From positions 1-40,357 of IMG/VR virus record IMGVR_UViG_3300045988_095878: a DNA stretch of 40,357 nt; one strand, 5' to 3'. The translations under genes were made by a program, and so were the position numbers. Below are positions 1-40,357 of the stretch, one piece after another; positions within the stretch are counted from its first letter, which is position 1, and each line of letters opens with the position of its first letter. Below the pieces are notes generated by a model. The model saw only the letters and a list, made by a program, of their open reading frames with translations, did not search any database and was not told the DNA's origin. This DNA comes from a virus.

Positions 1-99
1 CGGAAAACCACTGCTTGTCCAGCTCCGGCTCGATGTCGCTCAGAAACCGGTTGGCGGCTCTTCTGCCCTGCGTGGCGTAGAGGTAGTTGTATACGCCGA
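1..99. repeat. Terminal direct repeat identical to 40259..40357; signature of a circular or circularly permuted genome assembly
   Basis: Both window ends read cggaaaaccactgcttgtccagctccggctcgatgtcgctcagaaaccggttggcggctcttctgccctgcgtggcgtagaggtagttgtatacgccga. A minus-strand ORF runs through the junction in frame. Confidence 0.9.
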
Positions 100-601
100 C
101 CTCGTCGCTCGTCATGAAGGCGTACTTGCCGTAGTCGCCCCCGCGTCCTTGCGCCTGCGCCAGATCCGCCTGTGACCGGAAATTCGCAATGTTGTTGATG
201 TAATCGTATTTCTCGTCGCCGAAAAACTGCCGCTTGCTGCCGGCGCTTTTGGAAAGCTCGGAATAGTCTCCCGCTTTCATATAATCGGCGTATTTCCCGG
301 AGTACAGCGTCGGCGTGCGGTCGTCCGCTTTATTGAAGATGGTTTTGAGAACCGAGGTCGAGCCGCGGGCAGCGTTCCCGCTCTGCTGCCTCAGCTGCGC
401 CGCCGCGTCGGCATAGAGCGACGGCGGCGTCCGGCTTTGCTGAATGCGCTTGGCGAGCGATGGCTCGTCCGAAGAAGCGACTGCATTTTCGGTCATCCCT
501 GTTTTTCCGTAAATGTGTTTTGCAAGCGACGGCTCGCCCGAGGAGGCAGCCGTATTTCCGGTTGCCCCCTGCTTTCCGTAAATTCGTTCTGTCAGGCTCA
601 T
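1..601 (-). CDS. N-terminal ~200 codons of the giant polyvalent-type virion protein; continues at 40258 downwards once the 99-bp overlap is removed
   Basis: ATG at 601..599 follows RBS-like ggaaagggagaaaca. The frame stays open to base 1 (MSLTERIYGKQGATGNTAASSGEPSLAK...SDIEPELDKQWFS). 40258+601-40241=618 is divisible by 3, so it is in frame with track ORF 32574..40241. It is missing from the track because it runs off the window. Confidence 0.8.
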   Translation of the reverse strand, partial: MSLTERIYGKQGATGNTAASSGEPSLAKHIYGKTGMTENAVASSDEPSLAKRIQQSRTPPSLYADAAAQLRQQSGNAARGSTSVLKTIFNKADDRTPTLYSGKYADYMKAGDYSELSKSAGSKRQFFGDEKYDYINNIANFRSQADLAQAQGRGGDYGKYAFMTSDEVGVYNYLYATQGRRAANRFLSDIEPELDKQWFS

Positions 602-623: not shown

Positions 624-1913
624 TTACTTGTTGTTTTTCAGCGCCTTCATTGCGTCATCCAGACCACTGCTTATCGTCGCTCGCTTGATTGCTTCCGCTT
701 GGTCTTTCGTGATGTTTCCTTCGGAAGTCTCTGCATCAATTGCGTTTGCAATGTCCTTGTACGGCGTCCCGCCTCGGCGCAAATTGATCGCTTCAGACAG
801 CATATTACGTCCGTTTTTCTTTGTGTCCTTGCTTCCGCCGTAGTAATACCCGCTGTACGACGGCGCCGCCGGCGCGGAGACGTAGCCGAGCGTCCGTGCA
901 AGGGACGGGTTCGCCGCGATCCACGCCTTTTTCATCTTCGCGATCTCGTCCTCCGTGTAGCCGAGATCGAGATAGCCGGAGAAGTCGCCGTACTGTGCCA
1001 TGTTCTCCGCCCGCTGCGCCTTATCCTGCTGCTGCTGTGCAAGGAGGTTCGCAAGGTTGGCATAGAGATTCTGCTGCGCCTGCGCGTTCGCCTGGTCCCT
1101 CGCGGCGTTCGCCTGATACTCGGCGTCCGCGCCCCGCTCCCGCAGCTTCGCAATGGCGGCGAGCCGCGCCGCCTCGTTCTCGTTGAGCCGCTCGCCGTAG
1201 GCGGTGTCCAGTCCCAGCCGGGCGGACTCGCTCATGCCGCCGGAGTACCCCCGCGCCGCCATCTCCTGCGGCAGAGTGCGCAGGCTCTCCATGTAGTCGC
1301 GGTAGAGCTGCTTGTTGAGATTCCCGTACTGCGTCCCCAGCTCCCCGACGCCCTGCTCCACCTGCCCGAGCGCCCGCTCGGCGGCGGCCTTCGCCGCGTC
1401 GTTGTTCGCCTTCACGGCGTCGTCGTACATCTTCTGGTACTGGTCGCGGAGCTCGTCGAGGTACGTCCGCTTCGGCTCTGCGGGCGTCTCCTCCGTCGTC
1501 CCGTCCGTCGTGCCTTTCTTGGCGTTCCCGTCCTCATCGACATACGTCACCTTCGGCTGCGTCTGCTCCCGGCGCAGACGCTCGATGTAGTCCCAGTCCC
1601 AGCCGTTTGCCGGATTCGCCGGCGTCGCCGGCGTCTCCGACGCCGCGGGCGGTTTGGCGTTTTCCCACGCTTCCTCTGCCGCCGCCGACAGTCCCGGCGG
1701 CTCCTTTCCCGGAAGCAGCAGCCCGAATCCGTCACGATAATACCCCGGCGGCGTATAATTTTTGTTCCGTATCGCTTCGGTATACTCCTTGCTGTATCCG
1801 CCCTTGTTTGTGTTGCTCGGCGTCTGGTTCGCGTTGGATCTCGGAGAGGTGTAATCCGTTTTGTTTACTCCGACGTTCGCGGCGGAATACACCGGCTCAT
1901 ACGTTTTAGCCAT
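624..1913 (-). CDS. Hypothetical virion-associated protein (429 aa) with an Ala/Gln-rich coiled-coil centre
   Basis: ATG at 1913 follows gagaggagaacagaaaa. The gene is tightly packed between the portal/Zn-ribbon ORFs and the giant gene. I recognised no catalytic motif. Confidence 0.6.
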   Translation of the reverse strand: MAKTYEPVYSAANVGVNKTDYTSPRSNANQTPSNTNKGGYSKEYTEAIRNKNYTPPGYYRDGFGLLLPGKEPPGLSAAAEEAWENAKPPAASETPATPANPANGWDWDYIERLRREQTQPKVTYVDEDGNAKKGTTDGTTEETPAEPKRTYLDELRDQYQKMYDDAVKANNDAAKAAAERALGQVEQGVGELGTQYGNLNKQLYRDYMESLRTLPQEMAARGYSGGMSESARLGLDTAYGERLNENEAARLAAIAKLRERGADAEYQANAARDQANAQAQQNLYANLANLLAQQQQDKAQRAENMAQYGDFSGYLDLGYTEDEIAKMKKAWIAANPSLARTLGYVSAPAAPSYSGYYYGGSKDTKKNGRNMLSEAINLRRGGTPYKDIANAIDAETSEGNITKDQAEAIKRATISSGLDDAMKALKNNK

Positions 1914-2016
1914 TTTTCTGTTCTCCTCTCGGATAGTTGATGCACTTCGGGTTTCGGCAGACCCATTTTGTCGCGTTCGTCTTGGTCATTTCAATGCCGC
2001 ATTTTGGGCACTTCAT
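1906..2016 (-). CDS. 36-aa zinc-ribbon microprotein (MKCPKCGIEMTKTNATKWVCRNPKCINYPRGEQKNG)
   Basis: Hand translation. It has CxxC...CxxxxC spacing. Its ATG overlaps the portal stop (ATGA) and its stop overlaps the next gene start (AATGGCTAA). It is below the ORF-track length cut-off. Confidence 0.5.
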   Translation of the reverse strand: MKCPKCGIEMTKTNATKWVCRNPKCINYPRGEQKNG

Positions 2017-3887
2017 ACCGGCGCACCCCCCAGCATCGGGAGACTCTGCGCCCCCGGTATCGCTCCCTCAAGGCTCGCCGCGTCAATACCCCCCTGTGAA
2101 AGGCTCCCTTGTGTAAAGGGAGCTGTCGCCGCAGGCGACTGAGGGATTGCAGTCTCCGGCACCCCGAATTTCCGCTTCCATTCATCAATGATCTCCTGCT
2201 TGCCCGGCAGGTCGATAAGATCGAGCTGCGCTGCGTAGAGCTTCCAGTTGTCCGCCGTGATCTGGCTCTGCGTGAGCGCCTGCAGTGCGCTCAGCGTCTG
2301 CGCCTTGCCGTGGGCAATGCTGTCTCCCGCCGTGATCGTCACGTCCACCCGGGGGAAATACTCCCATTCGTCGCGCACAATGTTTCCTGCCATGTCCATC
2401 ACCGCCGGCATGACCGCCGTGAAGCTGTCGGCGTTGAACGGCATAGCCTGCGCCTCGCGGTCCTTCAGCTTGTCCGCGCCGATGTACAGCATCCGGTCGT
2501 CGTCGAAGAACTCCAGCGCCGACCAGTCCAGCAGCTCGTAGAGCCGTTCAAACCCGGCGGCGCGGTCCGCGCTCTTGATGCTCGACTGCTCCTGCGCGTC
2601 CTGCCGCAGCAGGGCAATGCCCGTCGCCGTCGTGACGCGGGTCGTCTCCTTGCCGGTGTTGGTGTCGTAGTTGCGGCTCGTGCGCTCGATCTGATTTTTG
2701 AAGAACTCAATCCCCATCGCCCCGTTGGCAATGCTCTGCAAGCCGCCGAGCCGTTGCACGCCGCCCATGCGCCCCTGCTTGAGGTGTACTACCGTTCCCG
2801 GCTCGTTCGTCAGCTCCTCGCCGTCGGCGAGCGCTCCGTCCTCTACAAGCAGGATGTCGTTCGCAAGGAACGTGTCGTTCAGAATGCTCATTGCGAGCTT
2901 CCGGTCCGCGGCGTCCACGAGATCGAGAATCGCGGCAAGCTCGCTCTTGTTCCAGAAGCGGTTTTCGTCCTGAATGCGCCAGTAATGCACGAACGGGAAG
3001 AGCCTGTTCTGCTTGCACGTCCTCTTCCAGTAGTTGGGGATGTACTTCAGCTCACGTCCGCCCGCCTGCACCGAGCAGGCGACCGCCCCGGCGGGGACCG
3101 TCTCGCCGTCTATGACCGTCTCGACCGGCTGGCGGAACCAGTGTTCGAGAATCTGCACCGTGTCGTCCACGTCGTCAATCGCCGTCGTTAAATCAAAAAG
3201 TCCCGTGCGGGAGACGTAGTCCGAGCTGAGAATGTCCTCCGCGGTCAGCCCCTGCTTTTCCAGCTCCCGCTTGTAGAGCTGGCAGAATTTAACTTTGTGG
3301 ATTGTGTATACGTAGTCCACAAACTGCCCGTCCTGCAGTGTGCCGTCCCGGATGGACGGATCCGGGAAAATGGATTCCGTCGGCACATCCTTGATCCGGA
3401 TGTCGCCCTCGTTCACGCCGCAGCGCATATCCTTATCCCAGTACGCCTTCCAGAAGGCGTCGCCGAGCTTCAGCAGCCGCCGCTCGTTGCGCGTGTTCAT
3501 GTCGGACAGGCGGTTGTTCTCCGCGATATACCGCACGGCAAACTCGCGCCGCTTCGCCATCGTGCTGTCGAGATCGTCGTCGCGCCCGCGGAACTCTGGC
3601 TCCGGCACGTTCGGCTCGATCTGACTCTCGACAAGGATGTACGGGTCCGGCATGTTTGCCGGCAGCCACGGAATGTCGTTGTCGCGGCAGTATTCGATCA
3701 TGTCCCGCGTCGCGTCATGGATGCCGTTGTAGTAGTCGTTGTACCGCTCCCACTCGGTTTCTACGGCGGTACGCGCCGCCTTTGCCCGGCGGAACAGCGC
3801 GTCCGCCGTCGTCTCCCGCATCTCCTGTGTGGAATAGTCGTACCCGACGATAATATTATCGTCGGGCTTTTTCTTTCGTTTTTTCAT
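2013..3887 (-). CDS. Portal protein (624 aa)
   Basis: Size, position in the structural operon and N-terminal portal-like text (WERYNDYYNGIH, PDPYILVESQIEP, RRLLKLGDAFWKAYWD). It is the only portal-sized candidate. The C-terminal tail carries an in-frame copy of the two-hairpin repeat. Confidence 0.65.
   Translation of the reverse strand: MKKRKKKPDDNIIVGYDYSTQEMRETTADALFRRAKAARTAVETEWERYNDYYNGIHDATRDMIEYCRDNDIPWLPANMPDPYILVESQIEPNVPEPEFRGRDDDLDSTMAKRREFAVRYIAENNRLSDMNTRNERRLLKLGDAFWKAYWDKDMRCGVNEGDIRIKDVPTESIFPDPSIRDGTLQDGQFVDYVYTIHKVKFCQLYKRELEKQGLTAEDILSSDYVSRTGLFDLTTAIDDVDDTVQILEHWFRQPVETVIDGETVPAGAVACSVQAGGRELKYIPNYWKRTCKQNRLFPFVHYWRIQDENRFWNKSELAAILDLVDAADRKLAMSILNDTFLANDILLVEDGALADGEELTNEPGTVVHLKQGRMGGVQRLGGLQSIANGAMGIEFFKNQIERTSRNYDTNTGKETTRVTTATGIALLRQDAQEQSSIKSADRAAGFERLYELLDWSALEFFDDDRMLYIGADKLKDREAQAMPFNADSFTAVMPAVMDMAGNIVRDEWEYFPRVDVTITAGDSIAHGKAQTLSALQALTQSQITADNWKLYAAQLDLIDLPGKQEIIDEWKRKFGVPETAIPQSPAATAPFTQGSLSQGGIDAASLEGAIPGAQSLPMLGGAPV
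2101..2149 (-). repeat. Two-hairpin repeat element, copy 1 (inside the portal 3' end)
   Basis: aggctcccttgtgtaaagggagctgtcgccgcaggcgactgagggattg. Hairpin ctccctt/aagggag plus hairpin gtcgcc/ggcgac, followed by the conserved tail ctgagggattg. Confidence 0.8.
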
Positions 3888-7964: not shown

Positions 7965-7968
7965 GTTC

Positions 7969-8584: not shown

Positions 8585-8586
8585 TA

Positions 8587-16826: not shown

Positions 16827-16854
16827 GCCCGCCGGTTTCCCGGCGGGCTTTTTT
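16827..16854. terminator. GC-rich hairpin just after the 121-aa gene; the T-tract is on the plus strand
   Basis: gcccgccgg-tttc-ccggcgggc-tttttt. Confidence 0.4.
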
Positions 16855-16860
16855 CGCATT

Positions 16861-17226: not shown

Positions 17227-17230
17227 ACGT

Positions 17231-27432: not shown

Positions 27433-27447
27433 CCTCCGTTCTCTTTT
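27418..27447 (+). terminator. Intrinsic terminator after the repressor remnant
   Basis: gagaacggag-attgac-ctccgttctc-tttt. Confidence 0.6.
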
Positions 27448-27456
27448 CCGTTTTTC

Positions 27457-27557
27457 GGTGCAGTTAGGTGCAAAACGGTGCTGAACGCTGTTAAACGCCG
27501 CACATGACCGCTTTTTGCCGCAGTTTGCCCGTTTATTCACAGTTTGTTCACAATTTG
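27457..27557 (+). repeat. Helically phased short direct repeats upstream of the Abi gene
   Basis: GGTGCA 27457, GGTGCA 27467 and GGTGCT 27477 have exact 10-bp spacing. TTCACAGTTTG (27536) and TTCACAATTTG (27547) are tandem 11-mers. Confidence 0.6.
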
Positions 27558-27632
27558 TTAATCACTTTCCAAACACTTTCCCATAAGATAATAGCAACAG
27601 AGCTGCTTGGAGATTTAATTGCTCCGGGGGCC

Positions 27633-27657
27633 AAGCCGAGCTTTTATGGCTCGGCTT
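27633..27657 (+). terminator. Hairpin with a T-rich tail just upstream of the Abi start
   Basis: aagccgagc-ttttatg-gctcggctt-tcttt. Confidence 0.45.
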
Positions 27658-27678
27658 TCTTTATAGGTGGGTGTACAG

Positions 27679-28581: not shown

Positions 28582-28588
28582 TTGAGGA

Positions 28589-28622
28589 GGAACCCGTCGG
28601 AAATTCCGACGGGTTCCTTTTT
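28589..28622 (+). terminator. Strong intrinsic terminator after the Abi gene
   Basis: 12-bp stem ggaacccgtcgg / ccgacgggttcc followed by ttttt. Confidence 0.8.
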
Positions 28623-28623
28623 G

Positions 28624-28722
28624 CTACGTCATCCCCAGCACGAAGAAGTACACCCTCCGCAGCTGCCGTATGTCCATCCGTCGCAGCATCCGCACAATCT
28701 CCTCGATCTTCGTCTCTTCCAT
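28624..28722 (-). CDS. 32-aa microprotein MEETKIEEIVRMLRRMDIRQLRRVYFFVLGMT (paralogue of 24805..24903)
   Basis: ATG 28722 follows aaggggggaagaa. It is convergent with the Abi gene and divergent from the HTH-TM/integrase pair. Confidence 0.45.
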   Translation of the reverse strand: MEETKIEEIVRMLRRMDIRQLRRVYFFVLGMT

Positions 28723-28744
28723 TTCTTCCCCCCTTGTCGTTTTG

Positions 28745-28773
28745 TTGCATTTCCTGTCATTTTCTTGTATACT
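28745..28773 (+). promoter_or_regulatory. Candidate promoter for the HTH-TM/integrase pair
   Basis: TTGCAT (28745-28750), 17 nt, TATACT (28768-28773). A structured leader of about 250 nt follows. Confidence 0.45.
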
Positions 28774-29018
28774 ACAACAAACTTTTATCTTTTTTGCGTC
28801 GTTCTTTGGCATTTGTTCTATAGTGTAGGCAAGGCGCCCGGGGTGATCGTGCCACAAGTCCGCCCCGGGCGTCCGCCGCAGGGCGTCCCGCTCGCCCTGC
28901 TGTGCCTGTATCGTAGCATACTCTCCCGGATTCTGAAACCGAACGCCTTGTGAGCGAGCCGGAGTATAGTGTTTTACCCCTCGGATATATCCCGGCTTGC
29001 CACTGGAATAACGAAAGG

Positions 29019-29549
29019 ATGGAAACCATGAACGAAAACGAAATGGACGTGTTGAAAAACCGCTGGAGAGAGGCGAAGAGTACGCGCACGTTCTCGGACA
29101 TTGCCGAAGCCGCCGATCTGTCGCCGAGCACCGTGGAGTATGCTTTCTCCTTCAGATCTGCAAACCCTTGCATTGATACGGTCGTGCGCATCTCCCGGGA
29201 GCTGCACGTCTCGCTCGACGATACCTTCGGCATCCTCTCGCCGAGCAATCGTTCGGAGACGGAGCTTGCCCGTCAGGACGCCGCCCACTGGAAAGCGCGG
29301 TGTGAGTCCGCCGAACGGGACGTCGAATATCTCCGGACGGTCCTCTTGATGCTCGGCGTGTTCTTTCTCGTCCTCGTCGTCTGGTGTGTAACGATGGATC
29401 TTCGCTGCACGGAGATTGGTTTCTTCCGCGGGCGGTGGAGCTTTGGCGCCGTGTTCTCGATGCTCTGCGTCGCCGTCGCCGCAGTGATGGTTGTTCTCGT
29501 CATCGTCCGCGTCTGCCGCCGCCACAGGCAGCGTAAGGAGCAGAAATAA
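29019..29549 (+). CDS. Membrane-anchored HTH protein (XRE-like N-terminus, coiled coil, two TM segments)
   Basis: STRTFSDIAEAADLSPSTVEYAFS...IDTVVRISRELHVSLDDTFG is HTH-like. The TM segments are VLLMLGVFFLVLVVWCV and FGAVFSMLCVAVAAVMVVLVIV. The start is ATG 29019 or 29028, after aaagga. Confidence 0.6.
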   Translation: METMNENEMDVLKNRWREAKSTRTFSDIAEAADLSPSTVEYAFSFRSANPCIDTVVRISRELHVSLDDTFGILSPSNRSETELARQDAAHWKARCESAERDVEYLRTVLLMLGVFFLVLVVWCVTMDLRCTEIGFFRGRWSFGAVFSMLCVAVAAVMVVLVIVRVCRRHRQRKEQK

Positions 29550-30694
29550 TGAAGTGCTGCAGCTGCTCCCGCGAGATCCCGGAAAACTCGCTGTACTGCA
29601 ACTGGTGCGGGAAAAAGCAGTCAAAAACAAAAAAACGCCGGCGCAAACGCGCCGACGGCTTCGGTTCTGTATGGAAACTGCAAGGGAAGAGATCCCGCCC
29701 ATGGGTGGCACAGAAGGACGGTCAGACCGTCGGGTACTATGCGACTGCGAAAGAGGCAGACGAAGCTCTGTCCCTGCTCGTGCGTACTCCTCTGACAGAG
29801 AGATATAATTATACTCTCGCGGAAGCGCACGATCTCTGGCAATCCGAAAAGTTTCGTACCCTCGGTGAAAAAGGGCAGGAAGGATATTGTTCGGCATGGA
29901 AGCACCTTGCACCGCTGTACAGCACAAGACTTCGAGAAATTCGTTCCGAAGATTGGCAGAGCGCCATCGACGAAATGCGAGGGAAGAGCCGAAGTACCTG
30001 CGACAAGGTGAAACAGCTTGCGAGCCAGATTTCCAAATGGGGGATCAGAGAGGAAATTCTCCAAGTGAACTACGCGCAGTTTATCGTTCTTCCGGCGGAA
30101 AAGAAAAAGCCCGTCGTTACATTTACGCCGGAAGAGCTGGCAAAGCTCGCCGCCTCGCAGAGCGATACGGCGGACATTATTCTTCTTCTCATGTATACCG
30201 GAGCGCGTATCAACGAATTGTTCACCGTCCCGCTGGAATGTTGTTACGACAAATGGATCCTGTGGGGCAGCAAATCCGATGCCGGGCGTGATCGCAGCAT
30301 TCCAATCCCCGACATAATCCTTCCGCGCTACACACGCATCCGGCAGCGTGCGCTCGATACCGGCGGCACGCGCTTGATTGATGGGTATTCCGGCGCTCAC
30401 GATGTAAGCAACTTCCGCAAGAGAGACTATTATCCCCTTCTCGAATCCCTCGGTATTGAGCGTAAAGTACCGCACACTTCAAGGAAAACTTTTATCTCTG
30501 CCAACGTCGAAGCTGGAACACGCCCAGAGATCCTGCAAACCGTCGTTGGACACGCCGATTATGATACGACCTTGAAATACTATACCAAATTTTCCCACGA
30601 AACGCTCTCCGCGGCAGTGAACAAGGCAGTCAGTTGCCAACAAATCCCCAACAAAAGCGAAAAAGCCGAAAATAAAAAAGCCCGTAATCCTTGA
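29549..30694 (+). CDS. int: Tyrosine recombinase (phage integrase) with an N-terminal zinc ribbon
   Basis: TGARINELF (Arg), HTSRKTF (HxxR) and GHADYDTTLKYY (His/Tyr) are present. The N-terminus is MKCCSCSREIPENSLYCNWCG. The start overlaps the upstream stop (TAATG), and attP lies immediately downstream. Confidence 0.9.
   Translation: MKCCSCSREIPENSLYCNWCGKKQSKTKKRRRKRADGFGSVWKLQGKRSRPWVAQKDGQTVGYYATAKEADEALSLLVRTPLTERYNYTLAEAHDLWQSEKFRTLGEKGQEGYCSAWKHLAPLYSTRLREIRSEDWQSAIDEMRGKSRSTCDKVKQLASQISKWGIREEILQVNYAQFIVLPAEKKKPVVTFTPEELAKLAASQSDTADIILLLMYTGARINELFTVPLECCYDKWILWGSKSDAGRDRSIPIPDIILPRYTRIRQRALDTGGTRLIDGYSGAHDVSNFRKRDYYPLLESLGIERKVPHTSRKTFISANVEAGTRPEILQTVVGHADYDTTLKYYTKFSHETLSAAVNKAVSCQQIPNKSEKAENKKARNP
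30631..30653 (+). repeat. Arm-type repeat, left copy (inside the int 3' end)
   Basis: cagttgccaacaaatccccaaca compared with cagttaccaacaaatttccaaca at 30858: 20 of 23 bases identical, same orientation, flanking the tRNA-like core. Confidence 0.6.
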
Positions 30695-30711
30695 GATTAC
30701 AGGCTTTTTTT
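30679..30711 (+). terminator. Terminator hairpin spanning the int stop
   Basis: agcccgtaatc-cttga-gattacaggct, with one mismatch, followed by ttttttt. Confidence 0.6.
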
Positions 30712-30757
30712 GGTGGAGACGAATGGGCTCGAACCATCGACCTCATGCGTGTGAATT
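30711..30757 (-). other. attP core: 3' half of a tRNA (anticodon loop to CCA), not a complete tRNA gene
   Basis: The minus strand reads ttcacac-gcatg-aggtc-gatgg-ttcgagc-ccatt-cgtctcc-a-cca (anticodon loop, stem, variable loop, T arm, acceptor, CCA). No 5' half lies upstream. The loop would imply Val(CAC). Confidence 0.7.
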
Positions 30758-30857
30758 TTATTCGACAGAAAGTTTTACACGATACCGCACGAAATAACCC
30801 TGATTTTTCAACGCTTTTCGGCGTTCCCGTTTCTTTCTGTTTTGTTGTATTCCGTGT

Positions 30858-30880
30858 CAGTTACCAACAAATTTCCAACA
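30858..30880 (+). repeat. Arm-type repeat, right copy
   Basis: cagttaccaacaaatttccaaca. Confidence 0.6.
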
Positions 30881-30904
30881 GTTCACCGTACTGTACGGGT
30901 TGCT

Positions 30905-32573: not shown

Positions 32574-35500
32574 TTACCTTGAACTCGGCAGCTTGCCGTG
32601 CTTCAAAAAGTAGTCCAGCGGGCTGCCCCCCTTGATGGTGATCGTCCGGTTGCCGTGCTTGATCACGGTGTCCACGGCTTTCTCCGTCGCCTTGCGGATG
32701 TCCGTTCCGCCCGACATCTTCGCAAAGTCCGCGATGGCGTTTCCTTTCGTTCCGTTGGTCGAGACCTTCGCCTCCGGAATTACGTTCTTCGCCGCCTTCG
32801 GCGCGGCGGGAGCCTTGAGCGCCTTTGCCTTTCTGCTGCGCCGTCCGCCCCTGCCGGAGCCGCTGCCTCCGTTCCACGGCTGATACCGCAGGCTGTTCTC
32901 CTTGTACCCAGCGGCAATGTACAGCGCGTCCTTCTGCTCGGCGGGAATGTCGAGCGAGTTGATGTACTCCACGACCTTTTTCTTCTTTGACCCGGAAATG
33001 CTCTTGCCGTTCTCGTCCTTGTCGGCGTGCATATCCTTCGTGGCGAAATAGTAGTCGTAGTAGGTGTCGTAGCTCACGCCCTTACCGTAGGCGGTGCGTG
33101 CCTTGTCGTACACGTCCGAGCTGTACGTTTTCAGCGCGTACTCCGCGCCGAAGATCTCCCGGTTGATCTCGCGGTAGACGATGGCGTCCATGCGGCTCTC
33201 CGCCTGCTCCTCTGTGATGTCGTACTTCTCAGCGAACTCCGCAATGGCGGCGTCGTTGTCGGAGGAAAGCTCCGGATGCTCCTTGAGATACTTGTTCACC
33301 GCCTCGCGGTACGGCTCCGACTTGGCGATGATCTCCCTCTGCCGCTCAATGAGCTGCGCCTTCAAAGCGCGGACGAGCCGGTTCTTTTCGCCCTTGGAAA
33401 GCGTCTTGTCGTTCTGTATCTCGCGGATCTGCGCGTAGTAGTCGTTCACCGTGTCCCCGGCGTGGGAGACATACCGCCGCGTGATTTCCGCGCCGAGATC
33501 CCCGTCGTTCTTATCGTACTTGAGATCATCCAGCAGGTCGTAGTACTCGCTCGTCACGCGGTTGTTGCTGGTTGTGTCGATGGTGAACGCCGCCTTCGGC
33601 GCAGCGAGCAGCGGGTGCGACGCGCTCGTCGCCGGCGTAATGTGCGGCAGGAGGATGTCTCCGATGACGCCGGAGTACTGATCCAACAAATAATTGATCT
33701 TCTTCGGCGACAGGTTGAACGTTTTTCCGATCCATTTGGAAAGCTCGTCCGTTTTCTCGTCGTACCGCTCGCCCGGTCGGTAATTCTGCAATCTCTCGCT
33801 CTCGATGTTCCCGCCGTACCACGTCGTGCCGGGGTTGTCCGAGTTGAGGAGCTTTGTCTGCGTCCACGCCGTCGCGATGTTCTGATTGAAGATGTCCGTC
33901 GGGGCGACGTTGCTTTTGATTACCTCGAACACGTCGGAAAACTTCACGTCTCTGCCGTTGAGCTTCTCCTGCCCGTACACCGCGGCGGTACTCAGCACGG
34001 CAATGGCGCGTCCCTTCGGGATCTTGATCCAGTAGCCATTTCCCCATTTGATGAGATAGTAGTTCGCTTTCGTGTTGGCGGGGATGTCGTCCCACTCGTC
34101 ATCGTCGCCGTGCATAAGACCGTTCAACAGCAGCGGCGGCAGATTGATAAGCGCCGCTTTCAGAATGAGCGTCGCAGCCGCTTTCACGTCCCGCCGCTGC
34201 ACAATGTCCGTGGCGTTCCGGATAAATTTGTCGAACCCCTGCACGGACGGGTTGAGGAACGGCACAAAATACCGGTTGAGCGCCTTCGTCACGGTGCCGC
34301 CGCGGGCAAAGTTTGTCGTGATGTCCGCCGCGCCCAGCATCGCCTCCATCAGGTCGTTCTGCGTGAATTTCCCGGTTTTCACTCCGTTCACCGTCTTGCT
34401 CCCGCCCTTGTTGGCGAGGATGGTCATAAACTCCGCAAGACGGGGCGCAGCTTCGATTGCCTGTCCGAACGACTCATATTTTGCCCACACCTTCCCCGCA
34501 AGGCTTTTCGGCTCCTTCACCATGCCGGTCGTATAGTCCAGCATGGAGGCGTAGGAGCCGCCCAGCGCCTTGTACTGCTGCCAGATTTCGCCGTTCCTTG
34601 CGATCTGCACAATCGCCACCGGGTACATTTTTTCCCACGTGGTCCAGTCCGTGGAGTAGAACCCCGCGTCCTGCCAGTCGCGCACGGCGTTCCGCACCAT
34701 GAAAAACGGGTTGTACCCTGTGCAGAGAGCCTTGAACAGGTCGTTGAGCTTTTTCAGCCCCTGCGCCACGGGGAGATTGCCGTATTTGTCCGGCTGGAAC
34801 GCATTCAGCGCCTGCGTCAGCCCCTCGTCCATCGTGATGTCGTAAACCTTTCCGTCGCGCTTCACCGAGAAGATGTTTTGGAATACCGGCTGGTAATCCT
34901 CGTCGCTTTCGATGACGGCGTCCGTCGGCGTATACTCGCTTTCCGCGACATTCCAGATATACTTTTCCACGCGCTTTTTGTTGCCCTCGTATTCGTCCAG
35001 CAGCGCGGCTCCGAGCTGGTTTATGCCGGCGTTTCGCATCACGGATACCGTTTTCCGGCTCAGTGCGGTGTGCAGCGGCAGCAGCACAGCGTCGTCGCCT
35101 ACAGCTCTTCCTATGGCGTTCGACACGGTAATCCCGCCGTTTTTCCGGGCTTTTCTCCCCGCTCTGCTGTTTGTTCCTTCTCGCAGCGTGGGAACGTAAT
35201 GCGGGTAACGCTTTTGCAGATTCCGAGCATACTCCGCCGTAATGAGTCCCGCTCTGACGCGATAAGCAAGCAGGTCGTCGGAATACTTGTATACTTCCTT
35301 TGCCCATTGCTTGAACTCCGGGTTGGTATCCTCCAGCAGCTTTGCCGTTTCGCGGCTTTCTTCCGCCGTCACTTCGTATCCGAACACGGGCTTCAGTCCC
35401 TGCCGCTCCGCAATGCTTCTCTGCTTTTCCAGCTCCAGCACATACGCGGCGGCGGTCGCAACGGACGTTATCCTGCGCGGCTCGCCCTTGTGGGCAGCAA

Positions 35501-38500
35501 GGAACACTTCATGCGCCTCCGCCCGCACGACCGGCGAATCGCCGTCATATTCCACGATCTGCCGCAGCTCGTTTTTAGACAGCTCCCGGAGCTGGGGGAA
35601 TTTGTCCTTCACCCATTTAAGATTTTCTTTGATTTTCGCTATCTCCGCGGAGTTGTCGTACATCATGCGGTCTACGTTGTGCATATGGTAGAGATACAGC
35701 TGGAAATCCCGATACTTTGCCTCATTCTTCCGCATCGGTGCAAGCGTGTCCGCAAGACTTGATCCGATCTTGTGTCCGTCGATGTCGGTGCGTGCGCCGC
35801 CCTTGGTGATCCAGTTTCCCGCTCGCTGCGAATACGCCCCGGCGTTGAAGTAGTAGCCCTCCAGACTTTTGTTTCCGGTCGCCTTGGCGATCCGCCGCAC
35901 CGTGTCCCCGGCGTTCACGAACATCCGCATAGCGCCGCTCGAAATGCTCTCCATATTCTCCCGGAAGCTCTTCGCCGTCTTTGTGACCTCGGTAGTGATC
36001 TTCCCTGCCGTTGCCTCGTCCGTCGTGGCAGCTTCCAGTCTTGCCGCCGTCCGTTTTTTCTCCTGCTCGGCGGCAGCCGCATCTTCGGAATCTCCGAACA
36101 GCTCGGCAATGCGGGCATCCTCCTCGGCGGTTCTTTCCGCCTCCAGCTTCTTCGCTCTCTGGAAATTTTCCTCCGAGAAATTTTTGTTTGCCTGTGCATC
36201 GACGTACTCTGCGGCGTTTCGTGCCGCCACTTCCTTCAAGGGGCTGGACTCCTTGTATATCTGCCTCCCCGCGTGCTGGATCGTCGCGGTATGATTGACG
36301 CCGAGCGCGTCGGATTCCAGCTTGACCTTGTACACGGTCGTCCTCGGCTGATCCATTGAGATCGGCGCTGCCACTTCGGACTTTCCGCTGCTCATCAGCT
36401 CGCGGTATACCTGCCCCGCACCCTTGTCCGGCGCCGGGCGTCCATACCCGCGGTTGGCTCTGGCAAGCGTCTCGTCCTTTCTCATCAGCCGGGCAGCTTC
36501 CTGCCGGTCCTGCTGTGCCATCTTTCGGAACCATTCCCGGCGCTTGTCGGCTTCGTTCTGCTCTTCCACCTCTACGCTCGCCCGCCCGGAAGAAGCCTTC
36601 TGCACCACACCTCCGAGCTCGCTTAATTTTTTCCCTGTAATCTTGACACCGTCTTCGGCATATGCTATATTGCCTATAGAGCCATACGGTGGTTGGCGTG
36701 ACGGGAATTGTACCCTGAGCTGCATCAGCCACGTATCGGCTCTATTTTTGTTTGTGTCAAGGTACAAAAGTTCCGAGTTGTTGATCAGGTTTTGCAGGTT
36801 TCCGACAGATCTTCCGTAAGCGCTCGTCACGAGGGAAAACTCCGCTTCCGTCCTTCCGCCCGGCTTTGGTGTTAGCTCCAACGCGACCATCAGATTGTTT
36901 CCGTTTTTTGCCTTTTCTTCGCTCAGCAGCACGATGCTGTCCGACCGGGTAAGTGACTTCATAATCAAAACCGGGTTTTCGAGAATATCCGGAACCTTTT
37001 TGATGACATCCGCGGTTACTTCCGGGTGTTCCTCAAAGATTGTCCCGATCTTGCTTTTCCGCATATAGATGTTGTCCGTCCTTGCGCCGATGCTTTGCAG
37101 CGCCTCGGATGTCGTTCCCACGCGGAAATAGCCCGGCGACGTACTCAGCGCATCCACCGGCGTATTCTTCACCCAGTCGTCTACGTTCTTCCCGAAGTTC
37201 TCGTCAATGCTGTAGCTTGTCGTGTACCCATCCGCAAACACGGTATCCGCGTCGCCCAGATCGGGCGGCGTTTTTTTGCGCTCCTCGGCGGTCATCCGGC
37301 GGCGTGCGGCGGTGTCTCTCGCCTCGATCTCCCCGGCGGTGTTCCAGTAGAACTCTTTCACCGCTTCGCTCGCGTCGCCGAGAATGCGGTCGTACCGGTT
37401 CAGCTTTCCGAACCATTCCTTTCCGTAAAGCTCCCTGTACAGCTCGTCCGAGCGCTTCTCCAGCTCGTCCATTCGGCTTTCATCGTAGAGCACGGAGCCG
37501 TCGAGCATCGCTCCCATCTCGCGTTCAGTGCTGCGGTACTCGTCGTACAGCGCCCGATCCTCTGCGCTCAGACCATGGAGAAGCCGCGCCCGATTATCCC
37601 GATATTTTTCCGTCGCTTCGTTGTAGGTCGCCTCCCGGTTCCAGTATTGCGGGCTTGCGCCGCCGGTAAAGCCTTCCGTATTCTGTATGACGTGCTGGAG
37701 CTCGTGCAGTACAACGTCGGTCTCTTCCCCGAACAGAGAATCGCTCAGGATGATCGTGTTGTCCCGCTTGCTGAAATAGCCCTTTTGTCCATCCGGCAGA
37801 GAGTCGAACCTTACTGTCACGTTTTTCAGATCGGGGTATGCTTCAAAGAGCTTCGGATGGTTTATATACTCTGCCAAAGATAAATCATTTTTCCCCGCAG
37901 ACGCGCTCATTTTTCCTTCCAGCGCTGCGGCGAAGTTCTCAAACTCGTCCCCCAACACATCGGTCAGCTGCTGATAGGTTTTATCGCTGAACTCACCTCT
38001 TTCTCGCTGGCTTACGTACTCTCTGAGCATTCCGCGCTGTTCATTCGTTAGCCCGTCACCCGTGAGATTCTTGAACCGCGCCGTGTATTCCCGCAGAGCC
38101 TGAGTTTTTTCACGTTCCGACACGTAGGCTTTCCGAGTTTTCATCCCGGAATCGTCGATTTCAAAGCGCCATTTGCCGTCTCTGCCGCGATACCAGCCCG
38201 TTTCCTGCCGGATGGTCTCATTGTCCGTCCCGCTCTTTTCCAGCGCTTCTGCGCGGCGCAGGGCGGCGCTGTCGGCGGTTCTGGCGTTGATTCCCGCCGC
38301 ACTCGCTTTGCCCGGCGGTCCCGTCGTCTCCTGCTGCGTCTCGGTTCTCTGAGCCGGGGCGCTTTTTTGCGTCTCGGCGCGGATGGCGTCGCCGATCTCG
38401 CCGCGACCGTAGAAGAAATTCAGCCCCGCATAGGCGTCCGCCGCGATCTCCTCGGTGAGCAGCCGCTCGATTTCGTCCACGCTCATGGTCTCAAAATCAT

Positions 38501-40357
38501 AGATGCCCGCGTAGGCGTCCCGGTAGCTCTCATACATGGCGTCGTACTCCTCGGCGGTCATGCTCTCGCGTACCACGTCGTCCGCCGTCCGGATCATCTC
38601 CTCCGTGGCGTTTGCGTGGAAAAGCTCATGCTCCGCGATCAGCGCCGGGGAGACGGCAAGCCCGCTCCCGGTTTTCGCGTCCACGCGGAAATATACCCTG
38701 CCGTTTTCCACATAGCCGTTCACCGCCGTGCCGTTGATGAACATCTCGCCGCGGAACGCCACCGGCTCCATTCCGGCGGCAGTCACCTTGTCATACGCCG
38801 CCTGCGCTCTGGTGTCGAGCCGCTGCGCGTCCACGAGCGTGATCGTCTCGTTCCCGCCGCCGCGGATGCCGAGCTGCGCCGGGGTTACTTGCCGTAGATC
38901 CGCCTGCGTGTACGCTCCCACGCCTCCCGGAATTTCTTTTCCGCCGCCGGCGAGAGCTTGCGCTCCTGCTTCGGCGGCAGCTTGTCCGCCGGCGCGGAGA
39001 CCAGCATACCCGTTTTCTCGTCCCTGATAAGCGCTCTGTCCATTGTTCAAATCTCCTTCCGTATTCTGGATTTCCTGCGCGGCAGCCGCGACAGGCGACT
39101 GAGGGATTGTCGCTTCCTCTCTCTGCGCCGTATTGGCGGCTGTAGGCGCGTTTTTTGTCTGGGCAGTATAAGTACTCTCCTTCGCATCGGAACGCGCTCC
39201 TGCCTCCATCTGCTGCGTCATATACGCCGCAGCGCGTTCCATGTCTTTCCCCGTGCCGACCTTTGCCCGGAGTTCGTCCGCGTTCTTCGCGTCCACCAGC
39301 TCCGCCAGTGCGTACACCATGCCGGGGTCATCCGTTTTCGCGTCCCGCATCATCCGAACGACGTCCTGCGCCGTCGTGTCCAGCTGCTCCGCCACATAGT
39401 TAACGTATTGTTTATTGCTGTAGCTCTGTACGGTGCTGCTGCCGACGGAAGCAAGTGCGCCGCCGAGGAAGGAAAGCCCCTCCTGTCCGAGAACGGCGGC
39501 GAACGTCGCAAGCTCCGGGTGTTCCTTCTGGAACGGCGTGCCGTTCTGCTTGTAATACTCCAGCATCTTGGGAATGCCGCTCTCCTGCGTGCCGAAAAGC
39601 GCGTCCACCACGAGGTTTACCGCGCCGTTCGCCGCGTCCGACATCACTTCCTCCACGCCCTCCGGAGCCATAGCCAGCAGCACGCTTTTTATGAGATTCG
39701 TCGGGTTCTGTTTGAAGATTTTGATCGCCCACTCGCCGCCGACGGCTTCCGAGGCAAATTCAATGGCGCCGCGGGTAAGTCCGAGCGCGAGCGCCCCCTC
39801 GTTGGAATAGCCCTTTTCCTTGCTCTCGGCAATGGAGAGGGACGCCACCTCCGAGGACATCGCCAGCGAGCCGATGACGTTCGTCGCCGACATCAGCGCA
39901 GGTCCGGAAAAACCTGCCGCTTCTCCGAAGCCTTTTGCGACCAGCATATTCACAGCGCTGTCCGCGGCGCTCATCGCCGTGTTGTAAACAAAGCTGCCGA
40001 CCTTGCCGCCGAGACCCGGGTTTGTCTCCTCGATGTGTGATGCCGTGTCTCCGCGCAGCTCCTGCGTGATGTTGCTCGGCTGTCTCCACTTGGAATACGG
40101 ATTGATCTCCTGCCCGCGCAGCGACCGGACCGCGTCCTCTCCCATGGCGATTACGCTTGTCAGATTCCGCACCGGCTGCGCCGCAACGGTCATGGCGCTG
40201 GCAAGCGCTCTCGTCCCCGCGTTCTTGCCCAGCGCTTCCACAGTGCCGCGGTTCGCTCCGGAAAACCACTGCTTGTCCAGCTCCGGCTCGATGTCGCTCA
40301 GAAACCGGTTGGCGGCTCTTCTGCCCTGCGTGGCGTAGAGGTAGTTGTATACGCCGA
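32574..40357 (-). CDS. Main body of the giant polyvalent-type virion protein; about 2,761 aa in total after joining to 1..601
   Basis: The frame is uninterrupted. Two HExxH motifs are present (HELFH 38616-38630, HELQH 37692-37706). There is an LPD-like WYRGRDGKWRFEIDD, a GEIEARD motif and a MuF_C-like segment (about 36747-37139). The track start at 40241 is an internal GTG. Confidence 0.85.
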   Translation of the reverse strand, partial: GVYNYLYATQGRRAANRFLSDIEPELDKQWFSGANRGTVEALGKNAGTRALASAMTVAAQPVRNLTSVIAMGEDAVRSLRGQEINPYSKWRQPSNITQELRGDTASHIEETNPGLGGKVGSFVYNTAMSAADSAVNMLVAKGFGEAAGFSGPALMSATNVIGSLAMSSEVASLSIAESKEKGYSNEGALALGLTRGAIEFASEAVGGEWAIKIFKQNPTNLIKSVLLAMAPEGVEEVMSDAANGAVNLVVDALFGTQESGIPKMLEYYKQNGTPFQKEHPELATFAAVLGQEGLSFLGGALASVGSSTVQSYSNKQYVNYVAEQLDTTAQDVVRMMRDAKTDDPGMVYALAELVDAKNADELRAKVGTGKDMERAAAYMTQQMEAGARSDAKESTYTAQTKNAPTAANTAQREEATIPQSPVAAAAQEIQNTEGDLNNGQSAYQGRENGYAGLRAGGQAAAEAGAQALAGGGKEIPGGVGAYTQADLRQVTPAQLGIRGGGNETITLVDAQRLDTRAQAAYDKVTAAGMEPVAFRGEMFINGTAVNGYVENGRVYFRVDAKTGSGLAVSPALIAEHELFHANATEEMIRTADDVVRESMTAEEYDAMYESYRDAYAGIYDFETMSVDEIERLLTEEIAADAYAGLNFFYGRGEIGDAIRAETQKSAPAQRTETQQETTGPPGKASAAGINARTADSAALRRAEALEKSGTDNETIRQETGWYRGRDGKWRFEIDDSGMKTRKAYVSEREKTQALREYTARFKNLTGDGLTNEQRGMLREYVSQRERGEFSDKTYQQLTDVLGDEFENFAAALEGKMSASAGKNDLSLAEYINHPKLFEAYPDLKNVTVRFDSLPDGQKGYFSKRDNTIILSDSLFGEETDVVLHELQHVIQNTEGFTGGASPQYWNREATYNEATEKYRDNRARLLHGLSAEDRALYDEYRSTEREMGAMLDGSVLYDESRMDELEKRSDELYRELYGKEWFGKLNRYDRILGDASEAVKEFYWNTAGEIEARDTAARRRMTAEERKKTPPDLGDADTVFADGYTTSYSIDENFGKNVDDWVKNTPVDALSTSPGYFRVGTTSEALQSIGARTDNIYMRKSKIGTIFEEHPEVTADVIKKVPDILENPVLIMKSLTRSDSIVLLSEEKAKNGNNLMVALELTPKPGGRTEAEFSLVTSAYGRSVGNLQNLINNSELLYLDTNKNRADTWLMQLRVQFPSRQPPYGSIGNIAYAEDGVKITGKKLSELGGVVQKASSGRASVEVEEQNEADKRREWFRKMAQQDRQEAARLMRKDETLARANRGYGRPAPDKGAGQVYRELMSSGKSEVAAPISMDQPRTTVYKVKLESDALGVNHTATIQHAGRQIYKESSPLKEVAARNAAEYVDAQANKNFSEENFQRAKKLEAERTAEEDARIAELFGDSEDAAAAEQEKKRTAARLEAATTDEATAGKITTEVTKTAKSFRENMESISSGAMRMFVNAGDTVRRIAKATGNKSLEGYYFNAGAYSQRAGNWITKGGARTDIDGHKIGSSLADTLAPMRKNEAKYRDFQLYLYHMHNVDRMMYDNSAEIAKIKENLKWVKDKFPQLRELSKNELRQIVEYDGDSPVVRAEAHEVFLAAHKGEPRRITSVATAAAYVLELEKQRSIAERQGLKPVFGYEVTAEESRETAKLLEDTNPEFKQWAKEVYKYSDDLLAYRVRAGLITAEYARNLQKRYPHYVPTLREGTNSRAGRKARKNGGITVSNAIGRAVGDDAVLLPLHTALSRKTVSVMRNAGINQLGAALLDEYEGNKKRVEKYIWNVAESEYTPTDAVIESDEDYQPVFQNIFSVKRDGKVYDITMDEGLTQALNAFQPDKYGNLPVAQGLKKLNDLFKALCTGYNPFFMVRNAVRDWQDAGFYSTDWTTWEKMYPVAIVQIARNGEIWQQYKALGGSYASMLDYTTGMVKEPKSLAGKVWAKYESFGQAIEAAPRLAEFMTILANKGGSKTVNGVKTGKFTQNDLMEAMLGAADITTNFARGGTVTKALNRYFVPFLNPSVQGFDKFIRNATDIVQRRDVKAAATLILKAALINLPPLLLNGLMHGDDDEWDDIPANTKANYYLIKWGNGYWIKIPKGRAIAVLSTAAVYGQEKLNGRDVKFSDVFEVIKSNVAPTDIFNQNIATAWTQTKLLNSDNPGTTWYGGNIESERLQNYRPGERYDEKTDELSKWIGKTFNLSPKKINYLLDQYSGVIGDILLPHITPATSASHPLLAAPKAAFTIDTTSNNRVTSEYYDLLDDLKYDKNDGDLGAEITRRYVSHAGDTVNDYYAQIREIQNDKTLSKGEKNRLVRALKAQLIERQREIIAKSEPYREAVNKYLKEHPELSSDNDAAIAEFAEKYDITEEQAESRMDAIVYREINREIFGAEYALKTYSSDVYDKARTAYGKGVSYDTYYDYYFATKDMHADKDENGKSISGSKKKKVVEYINSLDIPAEQKDALYIAAGYKENSLRYQPWNGGSGSGRGGRRSRKAKALKAPAAPKAAKNVIPEAKVSTNGTKGNAIADFAKMSGGTDIRKATEKAVDTVIKHGNRTITIKGGSPLDYFLKHGKLPSSR
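39092..39109 (-). repeat. Partial (3' half) copy 4 of the two-hairpin repeat, inside the giant gene
   Basis: caggcgactgagggattg is identical to 2132-2149. It is translated as IPQSP in the same frame as in the portal. Confidence 0.7.
40259..40357. repeat. Terminal direct repeat, second copy of 1..99
   Basis: The 99-nt sequence is identical on direct reading. Confidence 0.9.

Follow-up and report, generated by a model that had tools for sequence, protein, structure and literature searches.

A circularly assembled gut phage genome cut within the gene for a giant LPD38-containing polyvalent protein

Phage genes and probable host

The window, by which we mean the whole 40,357-nt stretch of DNA analyzed here, is a complete phage genome from a gut metagenome, assembled as a circle. 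The phage is temperate and podovirus-like, and its virion genes include a portal protein of the P22-portal type (2013..3887, minus strand; phrog_156, E 1e-29), whose identical counterpart in an independent scaffold, L001, matches PF16510. The terminase large subunit (TerL, 13512-15167, minus strand) and small subunit (TerS, 15134-15577, minus strand) were identified by phrog_2/phrog_51 matches for the terminase genes, and the relatives of TerL include T4-like and Stx-converting phages. TerL/TerS, an SU10-type adaptor, and a GH25+CW_7 endolysin are all encoded on the same strand as the largest gene of the genome, which we call the giant gene. The portal gene lies two genes upstream of the giant gene and is transcribed in the same direction. 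Between them is a gene for a 429-aa protein (624..1913, minus strand), which has neither a Pfam nor a PHROG match and is found at the same position in L001 and in two further loci (L002 and L019).

A tyrosine integrase (29549-30694, plus strand; PF00589) is followed by an intergenic stretch (30695-30904, plus strand), which is where attP, the natural opening point of the circle, would be expected. The window's homology to an integrated relative (L019) ends at window position 30904, and host genes of L019 lie beyond this point. In this prophage, the giant gene is intact, and the prophage end is on the integrase side. A tRNA scan for a clue to the attachment site found none.

The host is probably a member of the Oscillospiraceae, and probably a Gram-positive gut bacterium, based on several genomic features: the GH25+CW_7 endolysin, Shine-Dalgarno motifs before 22 of the 31 genes (compared to a 17% background), homologues in Oscillibacter MAG bins, and one homologue in a Vescimonas prophage. 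Looking up the host proteins that flank the integrated relative by exact match gave no organism names. One homologue carries the NCBI label "Alistipes putredinis." We did not adopt this assignment, as the endolysin, the Shine-Dalgarno motifs, and the Oscillibacter/Vescimonas homologues favor Oscillospiraceae.

The rejoined giant gene and the terminal repeat

In the linear ORF list, the giant gene appears as 32574..40241 (minus strand), a 2555-aa frame with a GTG start. A sequence-only reading of the window had proposed that the contig is a closed circle cut inside its largest gene. Direct comparison reproduced the repeat on which this proposal was based: bases 1-99 are identical to 40259-40357, and the exact terminal repeat is 99 bp, since identity collapses at base 100. 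The only other repeated 30-mers in the window belong to one short repeat near 25966/27387. As features, the two copies carry no strand. The left copy (1..99) encodes, on the minus strand, aa 168-201 of the giant protein and represents the assembly overlap, while the right copy (40259..40357) is redundant and is dropped on circularization. The resulting circle is 40,258 bp with 58.9% GC.

When one copy was dropped, the circle rotated, and the ORFs called again, as the sequence-only reading had suggested, a single minus-strand frame ran through the junction. The longest stop-to-stop frame on the rejoined circle extends from 637 across the junction to 32574, and its first start codon is the ATG at 601. 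This ATG is preceded by GGAAAGGGAGAAACA, with GGAAAGGGAG located 5-14 nt upstream. The rejoined gene thus consists of a 5' part (1..601, minus strand), which encodes aa 1-200, includes the first base of codon 201, and is lost in linear annotation, and the remainder up to the junction (32574..40258, minus strand; stop codon 32574-32576). Together, these make 8,286 nt, or 2,761 aa, which is 20.6% of the circle and agrees with the predicted length and genome share. We recomputed both the frame arithmetic, in which (40258+601-40241) mod 3 = 0 with a difference of 618, and the stop-free translation over the junction (...DEVGVYNYLYATQGRRAANRFLSDIEPELDKQWFSGANRGTVEALGKNAG...), and both agree with the earlier values.

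Independent sequence data also support the rejoined gene. The protein P0001 (ENA scaffold BRIT16-1_SAMN02334040_METAG-scaffold_1474, 21,427 bp) has the same sequence as the giant protein along its full 2,761 aa (100% identity) and is encoded by an uninterrupted gene. Its N-terminus, called independently, is MSLTERIYGK..., which is conserved in homologues. This is the N-terminus given by the ATG at 601, the proposed start, and it lies upstream of the GTG at 40241, which is therefore only internal, as had been argued. At the DNA level, this scaffold (L001) aligns gap-free and with 100% identity to the rejoined junction ±3 kb and is 99.965% identical over 20,159 bp, confirming that the contig closes on itself. 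The junction-spanning residues are nearly invariant among homologues, and relatives on 37-40-kb contigs have the giant gene intact and internal. A DNA-level search of the giant gene against cultured phages gave only a 69-bp match at chance level.

While the circular topology of the assembly was borne out, the claim of a closed circular genome does not extend to the physical molecule, as the virion DNA is probably linear, circularly permuted, and terminally redundant, with the circle as its replicative or assembly form. This is based on the presence of an integrase, the integrated relative, and the grouping of TerL with terminases of the T4-phage and Stx-phage type. We also considered whether the repeat is a true direct terminal repeat (DTR), in which case the virion ends would be fixed inside the giant gene, and the gene would be whole only after circularization in the host. 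A terminal direct repeat is indeed how a short-DTR genome appears in an assembly. However, this repeat falls within a coding stretch that is strongly conserved (aa 168-201 hardly vary among homologues) rather than in an intergenic region near the terminase, the 99-mer is single-copy in L001, which passes straight through it, and relatives of the same size are cut at other places. The terminases with which TerL groups are of the headful type, and the 933W-like relative JC1 has a circularly permuted genome (PMC9144972). All of this makes a true DTR very unlikely.

The length of the repeat is itself informative: 99 is a standard final k-mer size (the older MEGAHIT default k-max, and a member of SPAdes k-lists), and circular contigs from assemblers of this type keep an overlap of length k. 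By its sequence context, then, the repeat is most likely an assembler overlap from a de Bruijn-graph walk of a cycle, with no physical terminus, and the arbitrary cut point happens to sit at codons 168-201 of the largest gene. The consequence for the record is that linear annotation shortens its largest gene by 618 nt, or 206 codons (601 nt of them at the left end, the part that had been expected to be missed), and has it begin at a GTG that is not its true start. Several other viral contigs from this phage group in public databases terminate inside the giant gene as well, so the databases hold fragments of it. Unless contigs are re-circularized and rotated, with attP or the terminase as the preferred origin, statistics on completeness and gene content will be inaccurate for these phages.

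Modular architecture of the giant protein

The N-terminal module (aa 1-846; 38322..40258 plus 1-601, minus strand) contains short N-terminal repeats, a Gly/Ala-rich helical region with a PHROG match (phrog_22978, aa 153-538), and a first HExxH motif (HELFH, 38616-38630), the region of which has no family match in Pfam or PHROG. This module is conserved only in the close clade; phmmer finds it in 8 of 150 distant representatives.

The middle of the protein is made up of variable, swappable cassettes bounded by conserved joints with the core G-[RK]-A-[ST]. Joint 1 (GPPGKASAAG, aa 847-856; 38292..38321, minus strand) opens this region, and the recurrent joint 2 (SSGRASVEVE, aa 1423-1432) is found at 36564..36593 on the minus strand. 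Among the matches listed, joint 1 is at the same place in 120 of 120 homologues, and hybrid joints show that exchange occurs exactly at the core. In this phage, the middle region carries an LPD23 domain (aa 854-907; 38139..38300, minus strand; PF18838, E 2.3e-20), a metallopeptidase-like cassette with the second HExxH motif (37650..37826, minus strand; HELQH at 37692-37706), and a MuF-C domain (aa 1276-1373; 36741..37034, minus strand; PF18819, E 2.4e-22). Close relatives, with flanks that are 92-97% identical, encode LPD3 or PBECR3 instead of LPD23/MuF-C.

The second HExxH region has a weak match to the phrog_87 metalloprotease family (E 4e-4) and one to DUF6782, a putative metallopeptidase (E 1.5e-5; 24.8 bits, under the cut-off of 27), while a Pfam search gave no match to the MPTase-PolyVal model anywhere in the giant protein. 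Judged by their motifs, the HExxH units are metallopeptidase-like and putatively act as proteases. MuF-C has been assigned to the PBECR RNase fold (PMC5512222). A His (EEHPEV, aa 1278) and a Thr-Ser pair (LVTSAYG, aa ~1346-1347) are present in the MuF-C region and may correspond to the catalytic positions described in PMC5512222.

The C-terminal module (aa 1640-2660; 32880..35942, minus strand) contains Pfam LPD38 (33630-34103; PF18857, E 5.3e-24, 85.8 bits versus a cut-off of 27), as well as a conserved hydrophobic helix followed by a DDDEWDD patch (34110-34187, minus strand). All three named domains, LPD23, MuF_C, and LPD38, score above their Pfam cut-offs. The C-terminal module is found in 4,497 protein-cluster representatives (E<=1e-3), always at the C-terminus, and is shared by 140-150 of 150 representatives by phmmer. 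The conserved unit of ~1,000 aa thus reaches far beyond the 189-position Pfam LPD38 model. In tblastn searches, it matched a 2,793-aa giant protein of the Sepvirinae phage POCJ13 and a 2,631-aa protein of the 37-kb phage BA3; identity to remote homologues is about 22-25%.

An AF2 model of the C-terminal module, built on a diverse alignment of 45 sequences, reached a pLDDT of 79.6 and predicts an almost entirely helical fold with two small beta-hairpins (an alignment of 11 close homologues gave a pLDDT of 40 and was not used). Compared with phage LPD38 polyvalent proteins, the model gives TM-scores of 0.5-0.69, and these structural matches are fused to lysozyme, RelA/SpoT, or methylase domains. 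Foldseek searches of the PDB returned only insignificant helical-bundle matches (transporters, proteasome lid; E >= 0.36, TM < 0.15), and phmmer searches of PDB sequences with the full protein, along with the family profile, yielded nothing usable. The module therefore has a confident predicted fold without a solved counterpart.

Identity, proposed role, and relation to known systems

The giant gene product belongs to the phage-type large polyvalent proteins and bears an LPD38 module. Such proteins combine 2-15 functionally unrelated domains per polypeptide, and LPD38 is restricted to phage polyvalent proteins found with portal-terminase systems (PMC5512222). The giant protein shows several of the features by which the class is recognized: it has several distinct domains in one polypeptide (LPD23, MuF_C, and LPD38 plus two HExxH regions), it is encoded among the virion genes of a portal-terminase (pro)phage (portal, TerL/TerS, adaptor, endolysin), and it contains the phage-subset domain LPD38. 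For the zincin-like MPTase hub domain, also typical of the class, the two HExxH motifs would be the candidates. The polyvalent class, its association with the virion, and a share of ~20% of the genome have all been described already.

Altogether, we consider it quite probable that the window is a circular assembly of a phage genome cut inside a polyvalent gene, and that this gene encodes a modular protein that is made late, packed into the virion, and ejected as an early effector. For polyvalent proteins, packaging and injection have been predicted, with MPTase domains proposed as processors (PMC5512222). It is probable that the giant protein travels inside the capsid and leaves it with the DNA to act as an early effector polyprotein, because remote homologues of its LPD38 module are either virion-borne or occupy ~20% of their genomes. 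The former is the case for phi24B gp47 (2,811 aa; LPD5+LPD1+LPD38+MuF-C), which virion proteomics detects in abundance and which cannot be seen in the cryo-EM map; its proposed role is that of an encapsidated ejection protein (bioRxiv 10.64898/2026.04.10.717836). The latter applies to a protein of Thalassomonas phage BA3 and to JC1 gp69/Bcep22 gp75, which has LPD38 at its C-terminus and makes up 22.1% of the genome (PMC9144972).

In the mechanism we propose, the protein would be made late and packed into the capsid via its conserved C-terminal module, then expelled by way of the portal and tail, either ahead of the DNA or together with it, to help the genome across the envelope. The middle cassettes would be released to act early, as effectors directed at host RNA, proteins, or defenses, possibly by cleavage at the joints by the protein's own putative metallopeptidase units. 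Exchange of cassettes between near-identical phages would then represent an arms-race repertoire. A bolder version, which we offer tentatively and rate as possible but doubtful, is a virion-delivered polyprotein on a fixed chassis, in which the joints serve both as HExxH cleavage sites and as homologies for cassette swapping, and the LPD38 module is a universal encapsidation/ejection device, perhaps forming a trans-envelope conduit via its hydrophobic hairpin and DDDEWDD patch. If true, this would be a defined, programmable cargo-delivery system common to thousands of phages. The joints may instead be recombination scars only; their regularity makes the idea of a processed polyprotein directly testable.

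Three other roles can be weighed against this proposal. The protein could be made late but remain unpackaged, acting in the producing cell or lysogen (e.g., as an anti-defense or superinfection factor), with the adjacency to the portal gene incidental. Its effector-type domains (RNase fold, metallopeptidase-like) could work in cis, and the gene adjoins the lysogeny end of the genome. However, the gene also shares the orientation of the structural genes and the portal gene and lies directly downstream of them, the protein's remote homologue gp47 is abundant in virions, and LPD38 occurs in the portal-terminase context noted above (PMC5512222). An invariant C-terminal module of ~1,000 aa in thousands of otherwise different proteins better suits a shared delivery or assembly role, and we therefore regard an unpackaged protein as unlikely. 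As for the C-terminal module hiding a virion-packaged enzyme as its main job, such as a cryptic RNA polymerase like that of N4 or crAss-like phages, this would fit a giant virion-type protein in a podovirus and a module that is large, conserved, and uncharacterized, and the polyvalent class also takes in the N4-type vRNAPs (PMC5512222). Against it, the confident model is almost entirely helical, apart from its two small hairpins, and has no PDB match to a polymerase or other enzyme (best E 0.36), nor did the profile search of PDB sequences find one, leaving this highly improbable. It is scarcely credible that the ORF encodes a tail tape-measure or other tail structural protein, even though it is the largest gene of the structural block and its product is mostly alpha-helical with Gly/Ala-rich stretches. 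Neither the protein nor its neighbors match tail tube, sheath, or tape-measure families in Pfam or PHROGs; its Pfam matches are LPD23, MuF-C, and LPD38, its structural neighbors are polyvalent proteins, and the adaptor, portal, and short-fiber genes point to a podovirus-type tail. Tape-measure proteins scale at roughly 1.5 angstrom per residue, so a protein of 2,761 aa would correspond to a tail ~400 nm long. The tape-measure, true-DTR, and cryptic-polymerase readings were thus all rejected, based on family matches, repeat context, and fold searches.

Among known systems, N4 virion RNA polymerase and the internal (ejection) proteins of T7 and P22 are large proteins that podoviruses keep in the capsid and pass through the tail when they infect. 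They provide a working analogy only. PDB searches found no sequence or fold similarity to the giant protein, which has no polymerase signature. The polyvalent proteins described by Iyer, Burroughs, Anand, de Souza & Aravind 2017 (PMC5512222), which include mosaic orthologues, are alike in size, in LPD23/MuF-C/LPD38, in HExxH units, and in that mosaicism. In contrast to them, the giant protein is without the DNA methylase-helicase dyad, ART, ParB, and lysozyme domains, and its metallopeptidase-like units fail to match the MPTase-PolyVal model. The passages of PMC5512222 consulted here make no mention of regular G-[RK]-A-[ST] cassette joints.

The ~37-kb podophages, namely Thalassomonas (BA3_0002), Vibrio 1.211, and Shewanella X14, together with the "DarB-like" JC1 gp69/Bcep22 gp75, share with our phage an LPD38-ending gene that takes up ~20-22% of the genome. 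Their giant proteins carry lytic transglycosylase, N6-adenine methylase, and SF2 helicase domains, which are absent here, and are ~22% identical to ours in the shared module. Phi24B gp47 and its Sepvirinae counterparts resemble the giant protein in being ~2,800 aa proteins of temperate podoviruses, with MuF-C and a C-terminal LPD38. Shigella phage POCJ13 gp71 (2,793 aa), taken to be a gp47 counterpart based on subfamily, size, and LPD5 annotation, aligns with the C-terminal module at 25% identity over ~350 aa (E 4e-6). Only this module is detectably related between gp47 and the giant protein: gp47 has LPD5 and LPD1, whereas the giant protein has LPD23, and the gp47 phage has a Gram-negative host and a genome of ~60 kb, compared to 40 kb and a probable Gram-positive host here. 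The rejoined gene thus adds to these systems a clean, complete example of an LPD38-terminated polyvalent protein from a probable Gram-positive gut host.

A giant gene cut by linearization of a circularly assembled genome

Bases 1-99 of the window equal its last 99, with the match ending at base 100; the only other 30-mers repeated within the window lie in one short repeat near 25966/27387. The sequence-only reading had proposed a closed circular genome cut inside its largest gene, such that the minus-strand ORF 32574..40241 (2,555 aa from a GTG start in the ORF list) is a truncation. We dropped one repeat copy, rotated the origin of the resulting 40,258-bp circle (58.9% GC), and re-called ORFs, which gave a single 2,761-aa ORF through the junction. 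The frame arithmetic across the junction was reproduced exactly, and the junction peptide quoted in that reading matched our retranslation. The longest stop-to-stop frame on the rotated circle runs from 637 through the junction to 32574, and the ATG at 601, which follows GGAAAGGGAGAAACA, is its first start codon. With 8,286 nt, the giant gene occupies 20.6% of the circle, and the 99-bp repeat encodes aa 168-201 of its product.

The rejoined gene is real, and it is intact on an independent scaffold; both the observation and its interpretation hold. A search of 5.8 billion proteins recovered one (P0001), from a separately named 21,427-bp ENA scaffold (BRIT16-1_SAMN02334040_METAG-scaffold_1474; L001), that is identical to the giant protein across all 2,761 residues. 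This scaffold aligns gap-free at 100% identity over 3 kb on either side of the rejoined junction, and its match to the window overall is 99.965% over 20,159 bp; it carries the 99-mer in single copy, and its gene order (portal, 429-aa gene, giant gene, small genes) is that of the circularized window. There are more than 1,000 homologs, many of them internal to 37-40-kb contigs, and the junction-spanning residues are near-invariant across them. The ATG at 601 is further backed by the N-terminus MSLTERIYGK..., which is common to many homologs. Within aa 1-55 (window 439-601), there are two to three short tandem repeats (...EPSLAKHIYGK... / ...EPSLAKRIQQ...), with variants in homologs (KKPSLANRIAQNGG / KQKPSLASRIEANGG).

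A repeat at both ends could mark either a physical terminus or an assembly overlap on a cycle. The latter is most likely, since the repeat is part of conserved coding sequence, has a k-mer-like length (k = 99 is a standard last step in de Bruijn assembly), and relatives of equal length have cut points elsewhere. TerL clusters with the terminases of T4-like and Stx phages, and the 933W-like phage JC1 is reported to have circularly permuted DNA and headful packaging (PMC9144972). Based on these, the virion DNA is probably permuted and terminally redundant, and such DNA also assembles as a circle.

Several IMG/VR contigs (L007, L008, L016, and L017), one of 39,610 bp, start or stop inside the giant gene. 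Assemblies seem to break often in this gene, probably in its variable middle, so databases contain truncated copies. The main value of our result is as an annotation warning, given that several IMG/VR contigs also break within this gene.

Domains and exchangeable cassettes

The giant protein has three Pfam domains well over cut-off: LPD23 (aa 854-907), MuF_C (aa 1276-1373), and LPD38 (aa 2253-2410). PHROGs matches were to giant function-unknown families only, plus one weak metalloprotease match. HExxH motifs occur at aa 744 and aa 1052; the region of the first matched no family, while that of the second matched DUF6782 "putative metallopeptidase" slightly under cut-off (E 1.5e-5). With this domain content, the protein bears the hallmarks of phage-type large polyvalent proteins (Iyer et al. 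2017). In that paper (PMC5512222), LPD38 is described as confined to phages and MuF-C as a PBECR RNase-fold domain, processing of polyvalent chains by metallopeptidases is proposed, and mosaic orthologs are described.

Such mosaicism is seen in the close clade, where conservation covers the first ~846 and last ~1,330 residues and the middle is swapped: in relatives 92-97% identical in the flanks, LPD3 or PBECR3 replaces LPD23/MuF-C. Among the homologous proteins listed (P0001-P0120), every cassette border is marked by a joint whose core is G-[RK]-A-[ST]. Joint 1 reads ...TTGPPG[RK]A[ST]AAGI... at about aa 847 (aa 847-856; window 38292-38321), and joint 2, ...SSG[RK]ASVEV..., follows each cassette (aa 1423-1432; window 36564-36593). 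Hybrid joints also occur, e.g. SQEKSSGKASVAGIGARTADS, and show that cassettes are exchanged exactly at the core. The joints may serve as cleavage sites for a protease, as points of recombination, or as both. We hypothesize that the chain is processed at them, and the protein makes a neat test case for polyprotein processing.

Genome organization, integration, and host

The minus-strand late block runs TerS, TerL, a capsid-region block, holin, SU10-type adaptor, 619-aa virion protein, fiber-like protein, GH25+CW_7 endolysin, P22-type portal, 429-aa unknown, giant gene, and four small genes. The capsid-region block includes a 319-aa protein, whose Phage_capsid_4 match, in L001, is weak. The order is odd in that holin, adaptor, tail proteins, and endolysin are ahead of the portal (window 2013-8850), and it is repeated in L001, L002, and L019. 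We found no tail tube, sheath, or tape-measure genes in the window, so the particle is podovirus-like. On the replication side (15866-20788, minus), a rolling-circle-type Rep (REP_ORF2-G2P, phrog_3584) is beside PcfJ-like and DUF3102 proteins, genes more typical of plasmids and conjugative elements than of tailed phages.

The plus strand has a single sizeable block (26097-30694), encoding an Mrr-type nuclease, an Abi_2 abortive-infection-like protein, a small HTH/membrane protein, and a tyrosine integrase (29549-30694); it looks like a lysogeny/defense island expressed from the prophage. A 97-nt direct repeat (25901-25997 and 27322-27418; 78% identical overall and fully so over the last ~37 nt) flanks the Mrr_cat restriction-nuclease gene (26097-27323), and a hairpin follows each copy. 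The gene looks like a cassette acquired through recombination at a duplicated gene end.

The phage is temperate. An integrated relative in a 93-kb contig (L019) has the giant gene whole, and host genes (flavodoxin, AraC, GH2, and GH31) begin just past a 100-aa gene. Because homology to L019 ends at window 30904 (L019 20876-21258), attP should be in about 30695-30904, a 210-bp intergenic region ~1.7 kb from the giant-gene stop. A tRNA scan of the window found none.

Host signals from the window and from L003, L005, and L006 conflict. One homolog is labeled Alistipes putredinis at NCBI, but the GH25+CW_7 endolysin, Shine-Dalgarno motifs before 22 of 31 genes (vs 17% background), Oscillibacter MAG bins, and a prophage homolog in Vescimonas sanitatis point to an Oscillospiraceae host. 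The V. sanitatis homolog (MH37-1 scaffold1, L005, 7610-13411) is distant (1,933 aa, LPD3+LPD38, 37% identity). About 3.7 kb upstream are a reverse-transcriptase gene and a DUF6273 protein (2467-3903), possibly a diversity-generating retroelement, and a host radA-like gene is about 2.6 kb past the homolog.

A widespread C-terminal module and its relatives in cultured phages

The C-terminal 1,199 residues, searched against 1.84 billion cluster representatives, gave 4,497 matches at E<=1e-3, of which 1,311 reached E<=1e-30. The matched proteins are about 800-4,400 aa long and always carry the match at their C-terminus. Comparing the segments one by one with 150 representatives by phmmer defined the common unit as aa 1640-2660 (C-module); the N-module (aa 1-846) was found in just 8 of them. 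A shallow alignment gave a useless structure model (pLDDT 40), which we replaced using a diverse 45-sequence alignment (aa 1810-2660; pLDDT 79.6, pTM 0.68). The predicted fold is nearly all helical with two small beta-hairpins. Directly before the Pfam LPD38 region, a conserved hydrophobic helix is followed by an acidic DDDEWDD patch. Foldseek against PDB found no significant neighbor (best E 0.36, TM < 0.15), and sequence and profile searches against PDB were empty. Against predicted viral structures, there were 65 matches at E<=1e-3 (TM 0.5-0.69); those with names were mostly LPD38 or other phage polyvalent proteins, and some were named for lysozyme (LT_GEWL), RelA/SpoT, or type I methylase domains. 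The giant protein is a new member of an already described type.

In cultured phages, tblastn detects the C-module at 22-25% identity, including Thalassomonas BA3 (37.3 kb genome, 2,631-aa hypothetical protein), Vibrio, Shewanella, and 31 Ralstonia phages, Aeromonas phiARM81mr ("putative virion structural protein"), and Sepvirinae, e.g. POCJ13 gp71 (2,793 aa). Based on shared-module homology and gene position, we infer that the giant protein is probably packaged inside the head and ejected along with the DNA. The C-module would then be a common assembly/delivery device and the middle cassettes exchangeable early effectors. Phi24B gp47 (2,811 aa; LPD5, LPD1, LPD38, MuF-C), which shares LPD38 and MuF-C with the giant protein, is reported to be abundant in the virion proteome and missing from the cryo-EM map, and is proposed as an encapsidated ejection protein (2026 preprint, bioRxiv 10.64898/2026.04.10.717836). 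JC1 gp69/Bcep22 gp75 likewise ends in LPD38, and takes up 22.1% of its genome (PMC9144972) compared with 20.6% here.
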